From IMG/VR virus record IMGVR_UViG_3300042090_001045: 46,231 bases of DNA. The stretch is one strand, 5' to 3'. This DNA comes from a virus. The notes beneath the pieces are model-generated. The model was not told the DNA's origin. It searched no databases and saw nothing but the letters and a program-made list of their open reading frames with translations. The translations under genes and the position numbers were made by a program. This document shows, piece after piece, positions 31,228 to 46,231 of this stretch; position 1 is the first letter of the stretch; each line of letters starts with the position of its first letter.

Positions 31228-31457
31228 CGGTCGTGTTCGTCTTCGCAAGATTCCCATCCCGCTTGATATCCCGCCTCGTGCCCCTCCGCATAACCATCTT
31301 CATACGCATTTTCTAATCGCTGCGCAACATCCGTTTGAGAGGTAATATTTTGGAGGCGAGCTAGGCACTCCACATAAAGCGGGTCGCCGTCGTTATTAAC
31401 CCAAAATTCTAATTCCCGAATGAATTCCTCATCCGTCAGCGTTTGATATTTGCTCAT
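31224..31457 (-). CDS. Hypothetical acidic protein
   Basis: 77-aa ORF with ATG start. Confidence 0.5.
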   Translation of the reverse strand: MSKYQTLTDEEFIRELEFWVNNDGDPLYVECLARLQNITSQTDVAQRLENAYEDGYAEGHEAGYQAGWESCEDEHDR

Positions 31458-36388: not shown

Positions 36389-36781
36389 TTAGCAAGGCCC
36401 TCCCACGATTTGTTCATGGCGATTATTTTTCTCATGGAAACCAAATGTATTGGTAAATGTAAAAATACAACGAGAATATTTTTCTTTATTCCCTTCGCTG
36501 TAATAAAACCGTTGGCGCATTTCCGGAAAACCGCCAAAACTTGTCCACATAACGAAAGTTATGGTTTCTCCTACTCTATGCATATAACTTTTTGAGACGC
36601 CTCCCGTTTTCTGCGACGCCAGATTAATGTCTCTGAACTGTACGCGAGAATCTATAATTTTGTGCGGTTTCATAGTAATTTCTATTCGAGCGCGTTCCGG
36701 GATAGGTCGGATTCTGGTAATTACACCGTGTATTTCGACTTCAGTAGAAATGTGTTTTTGTAATATTTTTGTGCTAGCCAT
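36389..36781 (-). CDS. Hypothetical protein in a low-GC island
   Basis: 130-aa ORF, visibly AT-rich compared with all neighbours. Its stop abuts the primase stop with no gap. Confidence 0.55.
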   Translation of the reverse strand: MASTKILQKHISTEVEIHGVITRIRPIPERARIEITMKPHKIIDSRVQFRDINLASQKTGGVSKSYMHRVGETITFVMWTSFGGFPEMRQRFYYSEGNKEKYSRCIFTFTNTFGFHEKNNRHEQIVGGPC

Positions 36782-37009: not shown

Positions 37010-37123
37010 CTACTTATAGAAAATCGAAATAACCCAAGCACGGAACTTTTCGCCAAAGGTCTTAAAGCCTTCCCAGCCCGCGCCTAGCAGAAGGCCAATA
37101 GCGAAGCATATAACGTATTTCAT
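37010..37123 (-). CDS. Hydrophobic mini-protein (37 aa)
   Basis: Hand-translated MKYVICFAIGLLLGAGWEGFKTFGEKFRAWVISIFYK. RBS AAGGAG 7 nt upstream. Confidence 0.45.
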   Translation of the reverse strand: MKYVICFAIGLLLGAGWEGFKTFGEKFRAWVISIFYK

Positions 37124-37125
37124 TT

Positions 37126-37221
37126 CTATTCTCCTTCAAACTCTACCCAGCCGGTGAGCAGACAAATGGCCGTCCACAGCGCCGCCCCTGCAATCATAGA
37201 GAGCACGATAATCATGTTCAT
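37126..37221 (-). CDS. Hydrophobic mini-protein (31 aa)
   Basis: Hand-translated MNMIIVLSMIAGAALWTAICLLTGWVEFEGE, with GGAGA upstream. Confidence 0.4.
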   Translation of the reverse strand: MNMIIVLSMIAGAALWTAICLLTGWVEFEGE

Positions 37222-37298
37222 TCTCCGAGACAAAGAAGGGCCAGAAGCCCGAAAGCGCCGAGCGCCATACCTGCAATGAAGAAAAGACCTTCAATCAT
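37218..37298 (-). CDS. Hydrophobic mini-protein (26 aa)
   Basis: Hand-translated MIEGLFFIAGMALGAFGLLALLCLGE. ATGA-coupled to the next mini-ORF. Confidence 0.35.
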   Translation of the reverse strand: MIEGLFFIAGMALGAFGLLALLCLGE

Positions 37299-37301
37299 GA
37301 T

Positions 37302-39078: not shown

Positions 39079-39087
39079 TTTATGTGC

Positions 39088-39185
39088 CTACCAGAAAAAT
39101 GCGATCAGGATTAACCCTAATACCGGCAACCAAGCTGGGGTTAGCGCGCACAAAATTAAAATTGCCGATTCAACTTTATAGTATT

Positions 39186-39189
<4 letters not shown>
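39088..39189 (-). CDS. Hydrophobic mini-protein (33 aa) ATGA-coupled to the last GY-repeat gene
   Basis: Hand-translated MKYYKVESAILILCALTPAWLPVLGLILIAFFW. Its start shares the conserved CGATGAAATAC junction. Confidence 0.45.
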
Positions 39190-39487
<298 letters not shown>

Positions 39488-39491
<4 letters not shown>

Positions 39492-39733
39492 CGCGTCACC
39501 ATTCGATAAGGGTACGCACCCCAGCCGTTGCCGTAGCCGTAGCCGTAGCCGTAGCCGTGGCCGTCGCCGTAGCCGTAGCCGTAGCCGTCGCCGTAGCCGT
39601 CGCCGTTGCCGTTGCCGTTGCCGTAGCCGTAGCCGTAGCCGTAGCCGTCGCCGTAGCCGTTGCCGTCGCCGTGGCCGTGGCCGTGGCCGTGGCCGTGGCC
39701 GTTGCCGTGGCCGTGGCCGTCTGGGTATTTCAT
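39488..39733 (-). CDS. (Gly-X)n GY-repeat protein A2 (81 aa), with N-terminal Gly-His tract
   Basis: MKYPDGHGHGNGHGHGHGHGHGDG...GWGAYPYRMVTR. ATGA overlaps at both ends. Confidence 0.75.
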
Positions 39734-40005
39734 CGCGTCACCATTCGGTAAGGGTAAGCGCCCCAGCCGTAGCCGCTGCCGTTGCCGCTGCCGTTGCCGT
39801 CGCCGTTGCCGTAGCCGTAGCCGTAGCCGTAGCCGTCGCCGTAGCCGTTGCCGTAGCCGTAGCCGTCGCCGTAGCCGTAGCAGTAGCCGTAGCCGCTGCC
39901 GTTGCCGTAGCCGTCGCCGTAGCCGTCGCCGTAGCCGTTGCCGTAGCCGTTGCCGTAGCAGTAGCCGCTGCCGTTGCCGTCGCCGTAGCCCTTTGGGTAT
40001 TTCAT
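39730..40005 (-). CDS. (Gly-X)n GY-repeat protein A3 (91 aa)
   Basis: ORF 39730-40074 trimmed to ATG 40005 (MKYPKGYGDGNG...GWGAYPYRMVTR). That ATG overlaps the TGA of the vWA gene (ATGA). Confidence 0.75.
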   Translation of the reverse strand: MKYPKGYGDGNGSGYCYGNGYGNGYGDGYGDGYGNGSGYGYCYGYGDGYGYGNGYGDGYGYGYGYGNGDGNGSGNGSGYGWGAYPYRMVTR

Positions 40006-41057
40006 CGAGTCACCACATCTACGCCGCCGAGCGCCGCCGCCAATTTGGTAGCCCCGCAACCTATCGGCACACACAGGACTTTGCTTTTTTGTTTGTGGAC
40101 TCCTTCCGGCACCGGGTCACCGTCCGTAATGACAATGGCAAGTTTCGGTGTGGTTTTTTGCAGATGTTGAGAAATCAAATGATAAGGCGTATCACCTCCG
40201 CCGCCCGGGTCTTTGGCTACGAGTTTCCCGTTGCCAAAAAACCACACATCAGCGCGGATGGTCGCGCCGTACCGTTGCAAGAGCGCACGCAATTGGCTTT
40301 CTGCATGCGCGGTTTTCTCGGCGGTGAACGAACCGCTGCGGTCAACGAATATCTCTACGAGTGGCGGACGTGGTGTTGAGACCGCGCCCGCCGCCAAGAT
40401 ACTGCTATCCTGGTGGCGACGCGACGGGCGGCGGTAAGACTTTTCCCGGGTTACGCGCGAACGGAGCGCAGCATCCACTTCGTCGGTAAGCGTAGGCGGG
40501 CGGTTCTTTGCCAAAGCATAGGCACTAGCAGCCGCAGCTTGAGCCTCTTTTGCGTTTTCTTCCGCGTCCAGCTTCTCCCGCACCGCTTGGAGCACGCCGA
40601 TATCAGCAGGGGCGGCGCTTTCTCCCCCTTGCCCGTCGCCCGAGCAGCAACTGCAACACATTTTAGCCGTCTGCGGTTGTTGCTCGGGGTTGTCGAGAAG
40701 CCACTGATAAATATCTTCGGCCAACACAACATCGGGCGGCAAGCCCTCGTAAGTGTCAGGGAGATAGCCGCCCGTCAGCCGTGAGCGGGGCGCAGTGATA
40801 TTTTGAATATCTTGCTCATCGTAAATCGTGCGAGCAATTTCCATTTCACACGCCGCCGCCCACACGTCGTGGCGGCAGTCCTTGGGCGTACGCGCGTTGT
40901 GCCGCGCCCACACATGCGCTTGTTCGTGGCGCAGTGTCGTGCGGTATTCGGGCTTGTTGAGTTCGGACGCGATATAGATGCGCGTAAAATCCGTCATACC
41001 CGGCGCGCCGATCTCTTCCAAGGGCTTGCGTACAACAGGGGCGGCGGTGAGTTCCAT
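40002..41057 (-). CDS. vWA-domain protein with N-terminal HExxH metallopeptidase-like domain (DUF2201-type architecture)
   Basis: 351 aa. HEQAHV zinc motif, a central Cys cluster (MCCSCCSGDG), MIDAS-like VDRSGS and VITDGD in the C-terminal half. Confidence 0.8.
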   Translation of the reverse strand: MELTAAPVVRKPLEEIGAPGMTDFTRIYIASELNKPEYRTTLRHEQAHVWARHNARTPKDCRHDVWAAACEMEIARTIYDEQDIQNITAPRSRLTGGYLPDTYEGLPPDVVLAEDIYQWLLDNPEQQPQTAKMCCSCCSGDGQGGESAAPADIGVLQAVREKLDAEENAKEAQAAAASAYALAKNRPPTLTDEVDAALRSRVTREKSYRRPSRRHQDSSILAAGAVSTPRPPLVEIFVDRSGSFTAEKTAHAESQLRALLQRYGATIRADVWFFGNGKLVAKDPGGGGDTPYHLISQHLQKTTPKLAIVITDGDPVPEGVHKQKSKVLCVPIGCGATKLAAALGGVDVVTR

Positions 41058-41840
41058 TTAGACCCTCAGAATTTTGGCGGTTTTGGCGGCAACGCCGGAA
41101 CGGCGAACCGAAGACGTAGCCTTACTCAACACCTCATTATCCGCTTTGCGGATGAAGTGCATGATTTGGCTGGCGGTAGCGGGCGTCAGCAGGCCGCGAA
41201 CCAACGTATCGACGCTATCTTCTTCGGCACCGCGTTGGATCGCCTGAAGGGCCATTGCCAGTGTGCGGGGCGTGGTGATACGACGATCGAGCCCTTCGCC
41301 AGTCATATCAAATACCGGCATCTCGCCATTGCGCACGCTTTCGATCACACGGTTAGCCGCGGGCGTATTGAACTTCGTCTTCGCCCATGCTGCCCACTTA
41401 CCCACGTCCGGTACGTAATCGATCACTGCGAACCGGGAAAGCATGGCGTCGCCAATCCCGTCGCCCCCGCCGAATTCGGGCGGGTTAGCGGCCGCAACGA
41501 TACAAGTATCCTCGGGCAGCGCCGCCGAGCCGACTTGCCGAGATGCGACGAGCGTGAGCAAAGTGTCGGCTACCGAGCGGCGAGCCTTGTCCAGTTCGTC
41601 AAGAAAGAGCACCGTAGTCTTCCCGGCGGCGCTCGCCTCGTGCAGACGGCGAAAGATGCTTGGCACGGTGCGGTAATCGTAATCCCCCTCGCGGTACGGA
41701 AGGCCTGCGATATCTTCCTCAACCAAGGTGGAAGTCAATACGATTTCTGCGTGTTCGAAATGGGCGCGCACACTTGCGGTTTTGCCCACGCCCGGCGCGC
41801 CTACCAACAGCACAGGAATTTCCGGCGAAAACAGGTTCAT
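41058..41840 (-). CDS. MoxR-like AAA+ ATPase
   Basis: 260 aa. Walker A LLVGAPGVGKT, Walker B VLFLDELD. Directly precedes the vWA partner gene. Confidence 0.8.
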   Translation of the reverse strand: MNLFSPEIPVLLVGAPGVGKTASVRAHFEHAEIVLTSTLVEEDIAGLPYREGDYDYRTVPSIFRRLHEASAAGKTTVLFLDELDKARRSVADTLLTLVASRQVGSAALPEDTCIVAAANPPEFGGGDGIGDAMLSRFAVIDYVPDVGKWAAWAKTKFNTPAANRVIESVRNGEMPVFDMTGEGLDRRITTPRTLAMALQAIQRGAEEDSVDTLVRGLLTPATASQIMHFIRKADNEVLSKATSSVRRSGVAAKTAKILRV

Positions 41841-42337
41841 GATGGGTTCCTCAAATTAAGTAAATATTGTTCACGAGCATCGCGGGCTTCTTCCGGGGTG
41901 CGATAAGTGCCTATATGTTTCGAAATACCGTTTATGCATACTTGGGCGCGGAATCCAGTCCCGTTACGACTTACTCCTATGTAAGGTATTTCTCCGTAAG
42001 CAACGTGCATGTTTTGCATATTGATCGTTTGAGGTACGTCGCGAAGGTTAATAAACCGGTTATCGTTTTTTACTCCGTTGATGTGGTCTATGTGGAATTT
42101 AGGCCAATTACCGGTTTGCAGCGCCCAAGCTACCCGGTGCGCAAAATACTCTTTGCGTTTCAAGATTACCTTCACATATCCGCCAACTGTTATTTTCCCA
42201 GCGGGTCGGTCTAAATACCTCCCGCTTCCAGAAAACCGCCACCATAAATCGCCGGTGGCGGGGTCGTAACGCATATGCTCACGGAAAACGTTTAACGTTT
42301 CTTCGGTTTCTTTTGCCGCCCGCTGTTCAAACGTCAT
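41837..42337 (-). CDS. HNH endonuclease with AP2 domain (second copy in the genome)
   Basis: ORF trimmed to ATG 42337. HIDHINGVKNDNRFINLRDV HNH core and an AP2-like YIGVSRNGTGFRAQVCINGISKHIGTYRTPEEARDAREQY. ATGA-coupled to the AAA+ gene. Confidence 0.8.
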   Translation of the reverse strand: MTFEQRAAKETEETLNVFREHMRYDPATGDLWWRFSGSGRYLDRPAGKITVGGYVKVILKRKEYFAHRVAWALQTGNWPKFHIDHINGVKNDNRFINLRDVPQTINMQNMHVAYGEIPYIGVSRNGTGFRAQVCINGISKHIGTYRTPEEARDAREQYLLNLRNPS

Positions 42338-42385
42338 TTTCCTGTCCAAGATGTTTAAAGGATCAGGATATCACAATTCAAGGGA

Positions 42386-42661
42386 TCAGCGCAAGGTGGA
42401 GCCTTTGAAGGCGTACAGATCAACTGAGTCCGCGATTGCATACACCGCCGAGATCGGAAACAGCACTTCGGTTTCCGGATCGAAACGGTCAAGATTGACC
42501 GTCATGTCTTTGTCGCCGCGTGCGAGGCCGGGCATGCCTTTGCCCCCGGAGAAGCCACCAAACATAGCGGCGTTCTTGAGCGCCACATAGCCTTCCGGCG
42601 CGGTCACCTCAGTGCCGAAGTAGTAGAAGCCACCGGCAACCGTTACGATTTTCGTGTTCAT
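42386..42661 (-). CDS. Hypothetical protein
   Basis: 91-aa ORF with ATG start and GAGGAA upstream. Confidence 0.55.
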   Translation of the reverse strand: MNTKIVTVAGGFYYFGTEVTAPEGYVALKNAAMFGGFSGGKGMPGLARGDKDMTVNLDRFDPETEVLFPISAVYAIADSVDLYAFKGSTLR

Positions 42662-43331: not shown

Positions 43332-43439
43332 TTAGAAGAACATTTTGGATATAGCTAACGCAGCGAACGCTATCATGAAAATACTGGCGCTCAGCACAAA
43401 CACGCAGAAACAAAAACGTTCAAATTTACCCATTTTCAT
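43332..43439 (-). CDS. Hydrophobic mini-protein (35 aa)
   Basis: Hand-translated MKMGKFERFCFCVFVLSASIFMIAFAALAISKMFF. ATGA-coupled to the upstream mini-ORF. Confidence 0.4.
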   Translation of the reverse strand: MKMGKFERFCFCVFVLSASIFMIAFAALAISKMFF

Positions 43440-43573
43440 TCTCCGTAATTGGTTTCCCACCAAGCGCTCAGCAGGCTGGCTATGCCGCATGCGATAGCCC
43501 ACTGGATAAGGATTGAGCCGTCGTACAACAGACCGCAGCCCAAACTGATACAGAAAATTGCTACGTAATGCAT
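43436..43573 (-). CDS. Hydrophobic mini-protein (45 aa)
   Basis: Hand-translated MHYVAIFCISLGCGLLYDGSILIQWAIACGIASLLSAWWETNYGE. GAGGAA 7 nt upstream. Confidence 0.4.
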   Translation of the reverse strand: MHYVAIFCISLGCGLLYDGSILIQWAIACGIASLLSAWWETNYGE

Positions 43574-43583
43574 TTTGTGTTCC

Positions 43584-43640
43584 TCATCGCGTTATTAAAT
43601 GGTAGGGGTAACGGACCCAGCCGCCGTCTGGGTAGTTCAT
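43584..43640 (-). CDS. Cap-only mini-ORF of the GY family (18 aa; possibly a repeat-collapsed remnant)
   Basis: MNYPDG-GWVRYPYHLITR: N-cap joined directly to a diverged C-cap with no repeat body. ATGA-coupled to B2 through the same 55-nt junction used between B1 and B2. Confidence 0.4.
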   Translation of the reverse strand: MNYPDGGWVRYPYHLITR

Positions 43641-43918
43641 CTCGTCACCATTCGGTAAGGGTACGCACCCCAGCCGTCGCCGCCGCCGTAGCCGTAGCCG
43701 TAGCTGTAGCCGTAGCTGTAGCCGTAGCCGTTGCCGTAGCCGTAGCTGTAGCCGTAGCTGTAGCCGTAGCCGTTGCCGTCGCCGTAGCCGTCGCCGTAGC
43801 CGTAGCCGTCGCCGTCGCCGTAGCCGTAGCCGTCGCCGTCGCCGTCGCCGCCGCCGTCGCCGCCGCCGTCGCCGTAGCCGTTGCCGTTGCCGTCGCCGTA
43901 GCCGTCTGGGTAGTTCAT
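43637..43918 (-). CDS. (Gly-X)n GY-repeat protein B2 (93 aa)
   Basis: MNYPDGYGDGNGNGYGDGGGDGGGDGDGDGYGYG...YSYGYSYGYGYGGGDGWGAYPYRMVTR. ATGA overlaps at both ends. Confidence 0.75.
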   Translation of the reverse strand: MNYPDGYGDGNGNGYGDGGGDGGGDGDGDGYGYGDGDGYGYGDGYGDGNGYGYSYGYSYGYGNGYGYSYGYSYGYGYGGGDGWGAYPYRMVTR

Positions 43919-44154
43919 CTCGTCACCATTCGGTAAGGGTACGCACCCCAGCCGTAGCCGTAGCCGCCGCAGATCGCCCCGCCGCCGCCGTAGCTGTCGC
44001 CGTCGCCGTCGCCGTCGCCGTAGCCGTAGCCGGTGCCGTAGCCGTCGCCGTAGCCGTCGCCGTAGCCGTAGCCGTAGCCGCAGCCGTAGCCGTAGCCGTC
44101 GCCGTAGCCGTTGCCGTAGCCGTTGCCGTAGCCGTTGCCCTTTGGGTATTTCAT
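43915..44154 (-). CDS. (Gly-X)n GY-repeat protein B1 (79 aa)
   Basis: ORF trimmed to ATG 44154 (MKYPKGNGYGNG...GGGGAICGGYGYGWGAYPYRMVTR). That ATG overlaps the TGA of the upstream membrane-protein gene. Confidence 0.75.
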   Translation of the reverse strand: MKYPKGNGYGNGYGNGYGDGYGYGCGYGYGYGDGYGDGYGTGYGYGDGDGDGDSYGGGGAICGGYGYGWGAYPYRMVTR

Positions 44155-44432
44155 CTTTCCATATCCCAAGGTTGCGTTGAGTCGAGTCGCATGCTGTAGC
44201 GTTCGTAGGAGGGTTTATCGGCGGCGCTTATCGGCCCGCGCATCGCGCTCGCTTCCGCCTCGGCGAGCCCGTCGTACATACGTTTGGCATGATCCTGTTC
44301 GCGCAACCGGAGCCACTTGTCAGCGTGCCGCGTGTAGAGTTTGTTGGTGATTTTGATATCGATGAGAGCGATAGCGCCGACCAGCACCGCCGCCGCTAAG
44401 ATGAAAGCAATTACGCATAGCGTAAATGTCAT
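44151..44432 (-). CDS. Single-pass membrane protein (93 aa), first gene of the minus arm
   Basis: ORF 44151-44615 trimmed to ATG 44432 preceded by AAGGAGAA. N-terminal TM helix MTFTLCVIAFILAAAVLVGAIALI followed by a charged tail. Confidence 0.6.
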   Translation of the reverse strand: MTFTLCVIAFILAAAVLVGAIALIDIKITNKLYTRHADKWLRLREQDHAKRMYDGLAEAEASAMRGPISAADKPSYERYSMRLDSTQPWDMER

Positions 44433-45946: not shown

Positions 45947-46231
45947 ATGACCGAAATCTATACACGTAAGGGCATAGCCATTCTTGTTGACGATGAGGAT
46001 TACGATAGACTGAATGCGTATACTTGGCGGCTCGACAGAAACGGTTACGCAATGCGCAGTTTGAAAATTGGCGAAAGGTACACCAACCAATACATGGCAC
46101 GTGAGATTGCGGGGACGTGTATTGGCGACGGGAAAGAAGTAGATCACATTAACGGTGTGAGACTCGATAACCGAAAAAGCAATTTACGGTTTTGCGATAG
46201 GAAAGGAAATACCAGAAACACTACTTTACGA
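45947..46231 (+). CDS. HNH/AP2 endonuclease, 5' part (continues at 99-278 after the circular junction)
   Basis: ATG 45947 (MTEIYTRKGIAILVDDEDYDRLNAYTWRLDRNGYAMR...). Open to the window end, in frame with 1-278. Confidence 0.85.
   Translation, partial: MTEIYTRKGIAILVDDEDYDRLNAYTWRLDRNGYAMRSLKIGERYTNQYMAREIAGTCIGDGKEVDHINGVRLDNRKSNLRFCDRKGNTRNTTLR
46134..46231. repeat. Terminal overlap, second copy of 1-98
   Basis: Identical to bases 1-98. Confidence 0.95.

Follow-up and report, generated by a model that had tools for sequence, protein, structure and literature searches.

The end of a phage vWA/metallopeptidase gene carries the junction sequence of the GY gene array that follows it

The vWA/metallopeptidase gene of the window (the whole stretch of viral DNA analysed, 46,231 nt) ends in the junction that links the GY genes of the adjacent tandem array to each other. 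Comparison with related phages and prophages demonstrated sequence identity between vWA and GY tails, lineage-specific breakpoints, a nucleotide constraint on GGTGA/ATGA and a conserved vWA-GY adjacency. The shared sequence is best explained, as far as such comparisons reach, by recombination at the array boundary: the vWA tail is probably a partial first copy of the array and the junction an initiation cassette. The novelty lies in the GY gene family and its recurrent grafting, while the initiation mechanism is textbook.

The vWA-to-GY junction in the window

The genes and junctions considered here, with their coordinates in the window, are:

41058..41840, minus strand: MoxR-like AAA+ ATPase gene (AAA_5, phrog_1297); its stop abuts the vWA start (TAAATG)
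40002..41057, minus strand: vWA/metallopeptidase gene, 351 aa, with HEQAH and a DRSGS MIDAS-like motif; ends ...GGVDVVTR-stop
39995..40014, minus strand: vWA to GY-A1 junction, reading GGTGACTCGATGAAATACCC
40014..40010, 40005..40003 and 40004..40002, minus strand: parts of that junction, respectively GGTGA (SD-like), ATG and TGA
39730..40005, minus strand: GY-A1 gene, 91 aa, MKYPKGYG...GWGAYPYRMVTR-stop
39723..39742, minus strand: GY-A1 to GY-A2 junction, GGTGACGCGATGAAATACCC
39488..39733, minus strand: GY-A2 gene, 81 aa, His-rich variant, MKYPDGHGHG...
39481..39500, minus strand: GY-A2 to GY-A3 junction, GGTGACGCGATGAACTATCC
39186..39491, minus strand: GY-A3 gene, 101 aa, MNYPDGNG...GWGGYPYRMVTR-stop
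39179..39198, minus strand: GY-A3 to membrane-ORF junction, GGTGACGCGATGAAATACTA; partial repeat unit at the distal side of the array
39088..39189, minus strand: hydrophobic/membrane ORF, 33 aa, MKYYKVESAILILCALTPAWLPVLGLILIAFFW; first 9 nt are the GY N-cap
44151..44432, minus strand: membrane-protein gene upstream of array B, 93 aa, ending ...PWDMER-stop; GAAAGATGAAATACCC (ATGA overlap)
43915..44154, minus strand: GY-B1 gene, 79 aa
43637..43918, minus strand: GY-B2 gene, 93 aa; the junction on either side is GGTGACGAGATGAACTACCC
43584..43640, minus strand: coreless GY remnant of array B, MNYPDGGWVRYPYHLITR-stop; GGTGA lost (TTAATAACGCGATGA)

The vWA gene ends in GTGGTGACTCGATGAAATACCC (minus strand), where its TGA stop overlaps the GY-A1 ATG. 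The GY-to-GY junctions have the consensus GGTGACGCGATGAA[A/C]TA[C/T]CC, and the ATGA stop/start overlap was present at 4/4 junctions of array A and 3/3 of array B. Allowing up to two mismatches, GGTGACKCGATGAA had seven matches in the window (0.5 expected). Exact matches, four in number, lie at 40001-40014, 39729-39742, 39487-39500 and 39185-39198, and array B has two with one mismatch (GGTGACGAGATGAA); ATGAAATACCC was found exactly at 39995, 39723 and 44144. Of the 11 junction nt inside the vWA gene (TGGTGACTCGA), 10 are the same in the GY tail (TGGTGACGCGA), and the downstream half matches entirely. This confirmed the claim of the earlier note that the GY junction is carried by the end of the vWA gene. 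Its description of the junction from the membrane-protein gene into array B (GGAAAGATGAAATACCC) as only half shared also agrees with our reading; this junction has the AGA Arg codon in common with array B's own junctions.

The sharing is not due to chance. Apart from the shortness of the motif, nothing speaks for a chance resemblance at one junction, and this explanation is refuted: a 10/11-nt match at a fixed position has a probability of about 8e-6 in random sequence (our calculation), and the same phenomenon occurs, with other sequences, in seven further genomes.

TRF located tandem arrays at 39221-39990 and 43672-44139, with three GY genes in array A and two in array B. Partial repeat copies were present at both borders of array A, in the vWA 3' end (10/11 nt) and in the downstream ORF, where a fourth copy of the junction joins GY-A3 to the 33-aa membrane ORF starting ATGAAATAC (MKY; 9 nt shared). 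The repeat unit appears to be out of phase with the gene borders, running from the last 3-4 vWA codons to the MKY of the membrane ORF. The cap GWGAYPYRMVTR was restricted to the window and present in both of its arrays. GY copies resemble each other more within a genome than between genomes, and the caps common to a genome's copies (MIYPKGNGYG in L019, YPTAAVIA in L052, QYPYRMVTR in L044) argue for concerted evolution of the copies. Like other tandem arrays under concerted evolution, the GY arrays have head-to-tail units, partial border copies, coreless remnants and variable copy number. Unlike in the usual arrays, each unit is a complete protein gene of very small size, internally built on a 6-nt repeat, and one border copy lies inside a functional neighbour gene whose C-terminus it alters. 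The finding is a natural example of a tandem array overwriting the 3' end of an enzyme gene beside it.

Adjacency and tail sequences among relatives

We compared about 30 related phage and prophage lineages. The GY gene directly follows the vWA gene in about 25 of the 30 (spacing -4, -1 or +2 nt), down to 39% vWA identity, so the adjacency on which the earlier note had staked its interpretation is kept in nearly all relatives. The number of GY genes varied from 2 to 8, L044 having five and L052 eight. The contigs of most relatives come from short-read metagenomes and break in the array, so that copy numbers and some tails may be mis-assembled. GY arrays disrupt short-read assemblies of this phage group. 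Isolated-phage relatives were not found by blastn or tblastn, and a scan of viral contigs for the AVIA-type pattern gave zero matches. Second arrays were not detected in the relatives, the extra pattern matches being the same post-vWA array at contig ends.

The last 12 nt of each vWA tail were compared with the GY tail of the same genome. The match was 9-12 of 12 nt in 8 genomes and 2-4 of 12 in 7 genomes; between clades it was 5.7-6.6 of 12. In the seven genomes with a match besides the window, the matching suffix was 9-19 nt long. The tail types differ (VVTR, DVTR, VIA, VSAVIA and TAVIA), as do their breakpoints. The matching tail is TGGTGACGCGA in L006 and L031 (TGGTGACTCGA in the window), GTGACGCGA in L019 and L044, and GTGATCGCA-TGA-AG-ATG in L020. 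In L051, 19 nt are identical and both the vWA and the GY tail read VSAVIA, while in L052 the conserved vWA DV is replaced by TAVIA. About half of the lineages had unrelated vWA tails without an SD (DVA, DVAA, AQT, VASS, DCV, EPC), retaining an ATGA, TAATG or TGATG overlap or a 2-nt gap; L003 (...GACGTTGCATGA) is an example. The GY junction on the vWA stop, as claimed for the window, therefore holds there but is not a general feature of vWA-GY pairs. As the SD-less, ungrafted lineages retain the array, the graft is not required.

The adjacency, the partial tail matching with varied breakpoints and the frozen GGTGA/ATGA together suggest that the vWA tail is a partial first copy of the array. The dispensable, variable-length vWA tail after the conserved ...DV would have been replaced by the tail of the GY C-cap, most likely by an in-frame deletion or a one-sided homologous recombination removing a leading GY gene. 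The vWA-GY1 junction would then be part of the array and be homogenised by exchange with the other junctions. Two remnants, read as possible intermediates, support the graft as a product of deletion: the coreless mini-ORF of array B and, in a Luteibacter prophage, a start-less remnant (...WKFPYSLVTR-stop) between the vWA stop and GY1. The estimate of how many grafts were independent relies on breakpoints, the vWA tree being a crude NJ tree rather than a robust phylogeny.

Transfer in the opposite direction was also considered. Here, the vWA C-terminus would have been VTR ancestrally and would have passed to the GY C-cap when the first duplication unit began in the vWA tail. A large vWA clade has DVVTR throughout, apparently as its ancestral state, and the 19 nt shared in L051 include a Val codon aligned with the conserved vWA DV. 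However, deep-branching GY caps (L025, L034, L057) already have YPYx[LM][VM] next to unrelated vWA tails, the sister clade combines LVTR in its GY tails with DVA, DVAA and AQT in its vWA tails, and in L052 the vWA DV is overwritten by the GY-type TAVIA. This origin is unlikely, and the deep caps with their unrelated vWA tails favour transfer from GY to vWA. The Val codon of L051 could derive from the vWA gene, and transfer may run both ways.

A further proposal, that VTR-COOH or AVIA-COOH is a shared peptide tag for a common partner (e.g. the MoxR ATPase or the metallopeptidase domain), would account for the co-variation of vWA and GY protein tails across clades, and the MoxR, vWA and GY genes always travel together in the relatives compared. 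Against it, the match is absent in seven lineages, terminal GY copies frequently end in other residues (LTTKSAQP, LVTRENL, LVTRP), the identity reaches synonymous sites, and from clade to clade the nucleotides GGTGA stay constant while the residues change (T or I; R, A or Q). We regard such a tag as very improbable. Conservation of C-terminal residues (V-T-R or A-V-I-x) can reflect the following gene's ribosome-binding site rather than protein function, and the VTR tail of these vWA proteins is not to be read as a functional motif.

The GGTGA and ATGA signals

At six junctions of the window, 4 nt separate GGTGA from the ATG, and not 6-7 nt as first described. The pattern GGTGANNNNATG had seven matches (0.84 expected), six at these junctions and one at a free-standing gene start. 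GGUGA pairs with UCACC near the 3' end of the 16S rRNA; in terms of GGAGG, its 4-nt spacing is equivalent to about 7 nt. GGTGA is also found in the position of a ribosome-binding site at free-standing starts (GAGGTGAaatcATG at 31457, GAGGTGAattATG at 36781), and probably acts as one at the junctions. The exact 17-mer GGTGACGCGATGAAATA also occurs in L010 and L008, at the starts of unrelated genes; its count in unrelated phages (L007, L008, L010) is about that expected by chance for a collection of this size, so it adds little to the case for such a use.

When 13 junctions of distinct lineages were compared, GGTGA and ATGA alone were invariant across the VTR and AVIA types; GGTGA-N4-ATGA is the sole block invariant over LVTR, MVTR and AVIA tails, and GGTGA-N4-ATG is retained even in the tail variants AVIQ (L022) and MVKV (L025). 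Every VTR-type junction uses GTG for Val and ACG for Thr, while the neighbouring Y-P-Y codons drift synonymously (Pro as ccc, cct, cca or ccg). In this genome GTG makes up 29% of Val codons and CGA has a background usage of 11%. The suggestion that C-cap conservation is partly enforced at the nucleotide level was borne out by the invariant block and by the constant GTG. Judged from these patterns, the junction appears to be a Shine-Dalgarno plus overlap cassette under nucleotide-level selection. ATGA overlaps are found at least 12 times elsewhere in this genome, and the habit extends to the operons of relatives.

The same invariance could be read as pure convergence, the vWA and GY tails having independently evolved an SD and an ATGA overlap with no common ancestry, since no block but GGTGA and ATGA is universally invariant and the 17-mer stands at unrelated gene starts. 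Selection for SD and overlap fixes about 6 nt, however, and the observed matches of 9-19 nt include the spacer and tail codons. The spacer and tail codons differ by clade (ACGCGA vs. TCGCA), with the vWA tail tracking its own clade, and the remnants in array B and in the Luteibacter prophage show deletion in progress. Convergence is disfavoured and improbable.

Under the array-spreading explanation, the 14-20 nt junction would be a compact initiation cassette, made up of the SD-like GGTGA, a 4-nt spacer and an ATG overlapping the upstream TGA. As this cassette lies within the last codons of each GY gene, each GY start falls at the preceding stop. Against this explanation stands that the Thr ACG codon and the CGCG spacer are frozen as well, beyond what SD and overlap account for. 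The geometry makes translational coupling, as proposed in the earlier note, plausible, with ribosomes re-initiating after the upstream cistron; an SD at optimal spacing is equally compatible with independent initiation of the GY genes. The graft would be expected to boost GY1 translation. Coupled overlapping cistrons (ATGA/TGATG, with the SD inside the upstream gene) are known from pairs of the E. coli trp operon and from many phage operons. The GY junctions resemble them in their same-strand arrangement, the 4-nt ATGA overlap and the GGTGA within the upstream coding sequence at optimal aligned spacing; -4 and -1 overlaps are also operon-wide here. They differ in that the cassette repeats head to tail, in that an unrelated enzyme gene has acquired a copy of it at its 3' end, and in that coupling is putative.

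We tentatively consider an adaptive reading, which is possible although not the favoured one: a portable, selected cassette would have been repeatedly captured by the vWA tail in an undescribed, widely conserved phage module (a 91-aa protein, MoxR ATPase, vWA/metallopeptidase and GY array). If so, capture would make a strong re-initiation site out of one that was weak and SD-less, raising the dose of the first GY protein, and would have happened at least four times, with differing breakpoints and two tail types.

An SD-masking UACC/GGUGA hairpin enforcing coupling was seen in single-sequence folds and rejected: the consensus of 13 lineages (4 bp, -0.64 kcal/mol) showed neither compensatory changes nor a conserved SD-masking structure, and z-scores ran from -0.7 to +3.0. 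A programmed -1 frameshift joining vWA to GY was rejected as well: in the upstream direction the GY frame stays open over 23 codons, but no slippery heptamer was seen by eye near the stop. Searches for known RNA families and tRNAs found none.

The encoded proteins

The predicted GY proteins alternate Gly-X and are rich in Tyr, Asn, Asp and His. Their AF2 model was uninformative (mean pLDDT 31.7, no predicted fold), and searches returned only low-complexity matches to proteins with other N-terminal domains. Gly/Tyr-rich low-complexity proteins include silk-like (GX)n blocks, nematode GY-rich peptides and FUS-like [G/S]Y[G/S] regions; GY proteins share the Gly-X alternation and the Tyr richness, a likeness that may be one of composition alone. 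The MKYP... N-cap and ...YPYxLVTR C-cap are, unlike anything in those proteins, specific to this phage family. In the literature we found no paper on GY arrays, nor on DUF2201 with MoxR in phages.

MoxR AAA+ and vWA proteins form known pairs (RavA-ViaA, CbbQ-CbbO, NorQ-NorD). As in these, the gene for a vWA-like protein with a MIDAS-like DxSxS directly follows an AAA_5-type ATPase gene. Unlike them, the vWA protein has an N-terminal HExxH metallopeptidase-like domain (DUF2201_N type, below cut-off), and the pair is phage-borne and followed by GY genes. Pfam scores of the vWA protein were below the cut-offs (DUF2201_N 20.2 bits, cut-off 23.2; DUF2201 19.3, cut-off 26.4); it matches phrog_1314 (E = 2.7e-21) and has no solved relative by sequence. 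A search gave 81 homologues of the vWA protein; HEQAH and DRSGS were invariant in the homologues. The ATPase scored 39.1 bits against AAA_5 (PF07728; cut-off 22) and matches phrog_1297 at E = 4.8e-27. MoxR, vWA/peptidase and GY genes form an unstudied conserved module in Burkholderiales and Xanthomonadales prophages, for which the Cupriavidus oxalaticus prophage (L044, CP196448.1) is a possible experimental handle.

Genome and layout of the GY arrays

The two ends of the window are identical over 98 nt (1-98 = 46134-46231), an overlap left by assembly; the window is therefore a complete, circularly assembled phage genome, 46,133 bp in length. It encodes terminase, portal, tail fibre, DNA polymerase, helicases and exonuclease; no relatives were found among isolated phages. 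GC content is 54.6% in the genome and 69% in the GY arrays (tandem arrays of tiny glycine-tyrosine-rich genes). Array A is a single tightly packed minus-strand operon, with an ATGA stop/start overlap at each junction from the vWA gene onward.

Genes in and around the two GY arrays
41840..41058, minus: MoxR-like AAA ATPase, array A operon
41057..40002, minus: vWA/metallopeptidase, 351 aa, C-terminus ...GGVDVVTR
40005..39730, minus: GY-A1, array A
39733..39488, minus: GY-A2, array A, His-rich variant (GHGHGNGHGHGHGHGHG)
39491..39186, minus: GY-A3, array A
39189..39088, minus: 33-aa hydrophobic ORF, end of array A
44432..44151, minus: membrane protein, 93 aa, preceding array B
44154..43915, minus: GY-B1, array B
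43918..43637, minus: GY-B2, array B
43640..43584, minus: coreless GY remnant, 18 aa, N-cap and C-cap only (MNYPDGGWVRYPYHLITR, then stop), end of array B

The vWA protein was matched weakly by Pfam DUF2201_N (metallopeptidase) and DUF2201 (VWA-like), both below curated cut-offs, and solidly by phrog_1314; its HExxH and DxSxS motifs are invariant. The gene upstream encodes an AAA_5 MoxR-type ATPase. GY proteins (79-101 aa) are of (G-X)n low complexity, with a conserved N-cap (M-K/N-Y-P-D/K-G) and C-cap (G-W-G-A-Y-P-Y-R-M-V-T-R). Protein searches gave no family match and no named homologue for them, and no confident fold was predicted (pLDDT 31.7). Sequence comparison marks the GY ORFs as real genes, because caps, frame and stop/start linkage are kept in relatives with vWA proteins 39-90% identical, the cap codons show synonymous variation, no change in length breaks the frame and public gene calls include these ORFs. 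Long plus-strand ORFs across the arrays (AVAVAV..., RSRSRC...; 39084-39509, 39557-39751, 39660-40379 and 43568-43936) were rejected as artefacts of the 6-nt repeat, read antisense or out of frame; a crude caller picked them, and they could mislead other gene callers.

Both arrays are followed by small single-helix ORFs of hydrophobic sequence (33-52 aa), with several more further downstream (39088-39189, 43436-43573, 43332-43413 and 37010-37300, all minus), and a membrane-protein gene also lies upstream of array B. A 91-aa protein (MNTKIVTVAGGFYYFG...GGFSGGKG...; 42386-42661, minus) with no Pfam or PHROG family is a constant companion of the MoxR, vWA and GY genes. Its gene immediately precedes that of the ATPase in L044, L047, L049 and L051-L056 (L numbers denote phage or prophage lineages used for comparison); in L033 and L021, which are distant relatives, it is found after the vWA gene, not before the ATPase gene. 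In the window, an HNH endonuclease gene (HNH_3; 41837-42349, minus) that looks like a homing-endonuclease insertion lies between the 91-aa gene and the ATPase gene. The (GYGDGNG)n core was also seen behind an unrelated conserved N-terminal domain (...TV.D.L.AGAC.DGV...) in other metagenomic proteins (P0082, P0083, P0085, P0086, P0090 and P0093), so GY cores occur in at least one other protein family. A hint of metal binding in the His-rich GY-A2, the Asp/Asn-rich cores and the MoxR/vWA context is pure speculation.

The shared junction and its nucleotide-level signal

Junction sequences
vWA to A1: GTGGTGACTCGATGAAATACCC
A1 to A2: ATGGTGACGCGATGAAATACCC
A2 to A3: ATGGTGACGCGATGAACTATCC
A3 to membrane ORF: ATGGTGACGCGATGAAATACTA
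array B, internal: ATGGTGACGAGATGAACTACCC

The earlier note had described the vWA stop as carrying the junction that links the GY genes to each other, and this was confirmed. The GY tail (the last GY codons) is identical at 10/11 nt to a stretch inside the vWA gene, and scans of the window gave 7 matches to GGTGACKCGATGAA with up to 2 mismatches (0.5 expected) and 7 to GGTGANNNNATG (0.84 expected). The proposal that the last C-cap codons double as the initiation signal of the next cistron was also supported, including a nucleotide-level signal in those codons; the sole correction concerns spacing, as GGTGA ends 4 nt, not 6-7 nt, before the ATG.

When 13 GY-to-GY junctions, each from a distinct lineage, were aligned, only GGTGA and ATGA were invariant across the LVTR, MVTR and AVIA types, Gly/Tyr/Pro codon positions aside; the MVKV tail of L025 likewise reads GGTGA-AGGT-ATGA. 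All VTR-type junctions use GTG for Val and ACG for Thr (29% and 39% of the respective codons in the genome, with CGA at 11% of Arg codons), and Leu is only CTG or TTG, so that the G is kept; Pro, in contrast, is encoded by all four of its codons and Tyr by both within these sequences. The vWA tails of proteins differing by 30-40% read GTG ACG CGA in 5/6 lineages (in the window the Thr codon is ACT). At the 16S rRNA 3' end, UCACC is the pairing partner of GGUGA, for which 4 nt of spacing is equivalent to the ~7 nt that is optimal for GGAGG. Free-standing genes of this genome at 31457 and 36781 carry GGTGA 3-4 nt before the ATG, and terminal GY copies without a tightly coupled next gene often lose the motif (ending ...LTTKSAQP, ...LVTRENL or ...LVTRP). 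Taken together, the GGTGA/ATGA invariance, the codon freeze, the free-standing GGTGA starts and the loss at array ends support the dual role of the C-cap; the ACG codon and the CGCG spacer are also frozen, which a GGTGA plus an overlap does not explain.

The exact 17-mer GGTGACGCGATGAAATA was also present in an overlap between two unrelated phage genes (...SEVTR-stop/MKYTNKY...; L010, 10340-10356) and as an intergenic RBS (L008, 6461-6477); the number of such matches is close to the chance prediction.

Adjacency and vWA tails in relatives

The comparison covered 81 vWA homologues and, from viral contigs, metagenomes and genomes, ~30 distinct genomic lineages (including Cupriavidus oxalaticus, Burkholderia cepacia, Dyella and Luteibacter prophages and a Paraburkholderia MAG). 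A general lack of vWA-GY adjacency, which the earlier note had considered as an objection to coupling, was not observed: a GY gene directly follows the vWA stop in ~25/30 lineages, down to 39% vWA identity, through an ATGA, TAATG or TGATG overlap or a 2-nt gap. The exceptions are L002 (array lost), Luteibacter (40-nt remnant between vWA and GY1), L033 (the conserved 91-aa gene intervenes), and L021 and L026 (contig ends or no GY gene seen). The vWA gene was present in 7/7 full-length IMG/VR contigs with a VTR-type GY cap (an eighth contig is a 4.3-kb fragment). GY arrays can also sit away from it, as array B does.

In many phage contigs of 35-40 kb the sequence stops within the GY array, 100-500 nt past the vWA gene (L001/L035, L012, L017, L019, L022, L031, L036, L038, L041, L043 and others), and L009 and L062 begin inside one. 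Short-read assembly appears to break at the arrays, which makes copy numbers from metagenome contigs unreliable. In bog-metagenome contigs L003, L016, L017, L018 and L027 the vWA 3' ends are identical and the first GY gene encodes 95, 95, 95, 133 and 87 aa, reflecting either rapid in-frame 6-nt repeat expansion/contraction in one phage population or assembly collapse.

Within each genome, the vWA gene and the GY genes were compared over the 12 nt that precede the stop. Eight genomes matched at 9-12/12 nt, with exact matching suffixes of 9-19 nt (in the window, 3 matching nt and 7 more after a single mismatch), and seven at 2-4/12 nt, which is the chance level; cross-clade comparisons gave ~6/12. 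Judged from these tails, the graft (a vWA tail carrying a copy of the GY tail) is a discrete, recurring state. Matching tails differ in kind and in breakpoint relative to the conserved ...DV of vWA.

Breakpoints of the grafted vWA tails
DV/VTR: window, L006, L031, L044, L055
D/VTR: L019
D/VIA: L020 (GTGATCGCATGAAGATG in both vWA and GY genes)
D/VSAVIA: L051 (19 identical nt)
DV itself replaced by GY-type TAVIA: L052

In an NJ tree of vWA built without the tail, DVVTR was found throughout one large clade including the window and scattered elsewhere, and AVIx tails formed a separate clade. A sister clade has vWA tails DVA, DVAA, AQA or ASS, although its GY genes end LVTR. DVVTR looks ancestral in its large clade, with VSR, RT, ESR, EPC and MAR derived.

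The membrane-protein gene upstream of array B ends GAA AGA TGA (44151-44160 compared with 43915-43927, minus). The rare Arg codon AGA (3% of Arg codons) is common to this gene and the junctions of array B, while array A and the vWA gene use CGA instead; the membrane-gene end may be a degraded graft too. The array B remnant, which is followed by no GY gene, has lost GGTGA and has CGA where the other array B junctions have AGA.

Proposed coupling and origin of the graft

The interpretation in the earlier note, with the array translationally coupled to the vWA gene, was supported in part; the coupling is suggested by the geometry of the junctions. No conserved RNA structure masking the start sites was found in folds or in the junction alignment, and a good Shine-Dalgarno sequence (SD) would equally allow independent initiation. 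Most ungrafted lineages lack an SD in front of GY1 yet retain the overlap; in these, GY1 is most likely reached by re-initiation once vWA translation has terminated, and the graft would add an SD to this site. Since ATGA overlaps are common genome-wide (at least 12 others in this genome) and continue through non-GY genes in the Cupriavidus operon, the overlap arrangement is the local norm.

Between the vWA stop and GY1, the Luteibacter prophage harbours a ...WKFPYSLVTR remnant that lacks a start, and array ends elsewhere have truncated N-caps or fusions (MKYLKGNPI in L006, MKYPNGTGDEI... in L005). Together with the array B mini-ORF, these indicate that GY deletions removing the core and sparing the caps do occur; if one of these had its endpoint in the vWA tail and kept the frame, precisely this graft would result. 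Deep-branching GY caps (L025, L034 and L057) read YPYx[LM][VM], whereas the vWA tails of those lineages show no relation to it; the V of VTR therefore belongs originally to the GY cap. By contrast, the shared Val codon of L051 aligns with the DV of the vWA gene; genes that already have a junction in common probably exchange sequence in either direction. The data are best explained by an SD-plus-overlap cassette under selection, together with recombination where the array meets its neighbour.

The GY module is a more novel object than the junction: its context (91-aa protein, MoxR ATPase, vWA/metallopeptidase and GY array) is conserved across many uncultivated phages and prophages, and no description of it was found in the searchable literature. 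The proposed mechanism is the one known from classical cistrons that overlap and are translationally coupled, their SD lying inside the upstream gene; in its evolution the array follows the pattern of tandem arrays that evolve in concert and have partial copies at their borders. Less usual here are the border copy inside a functional neighbouring gene, the graft with several different breakpoints and two different tail types, and an array made of whole mini-genes.
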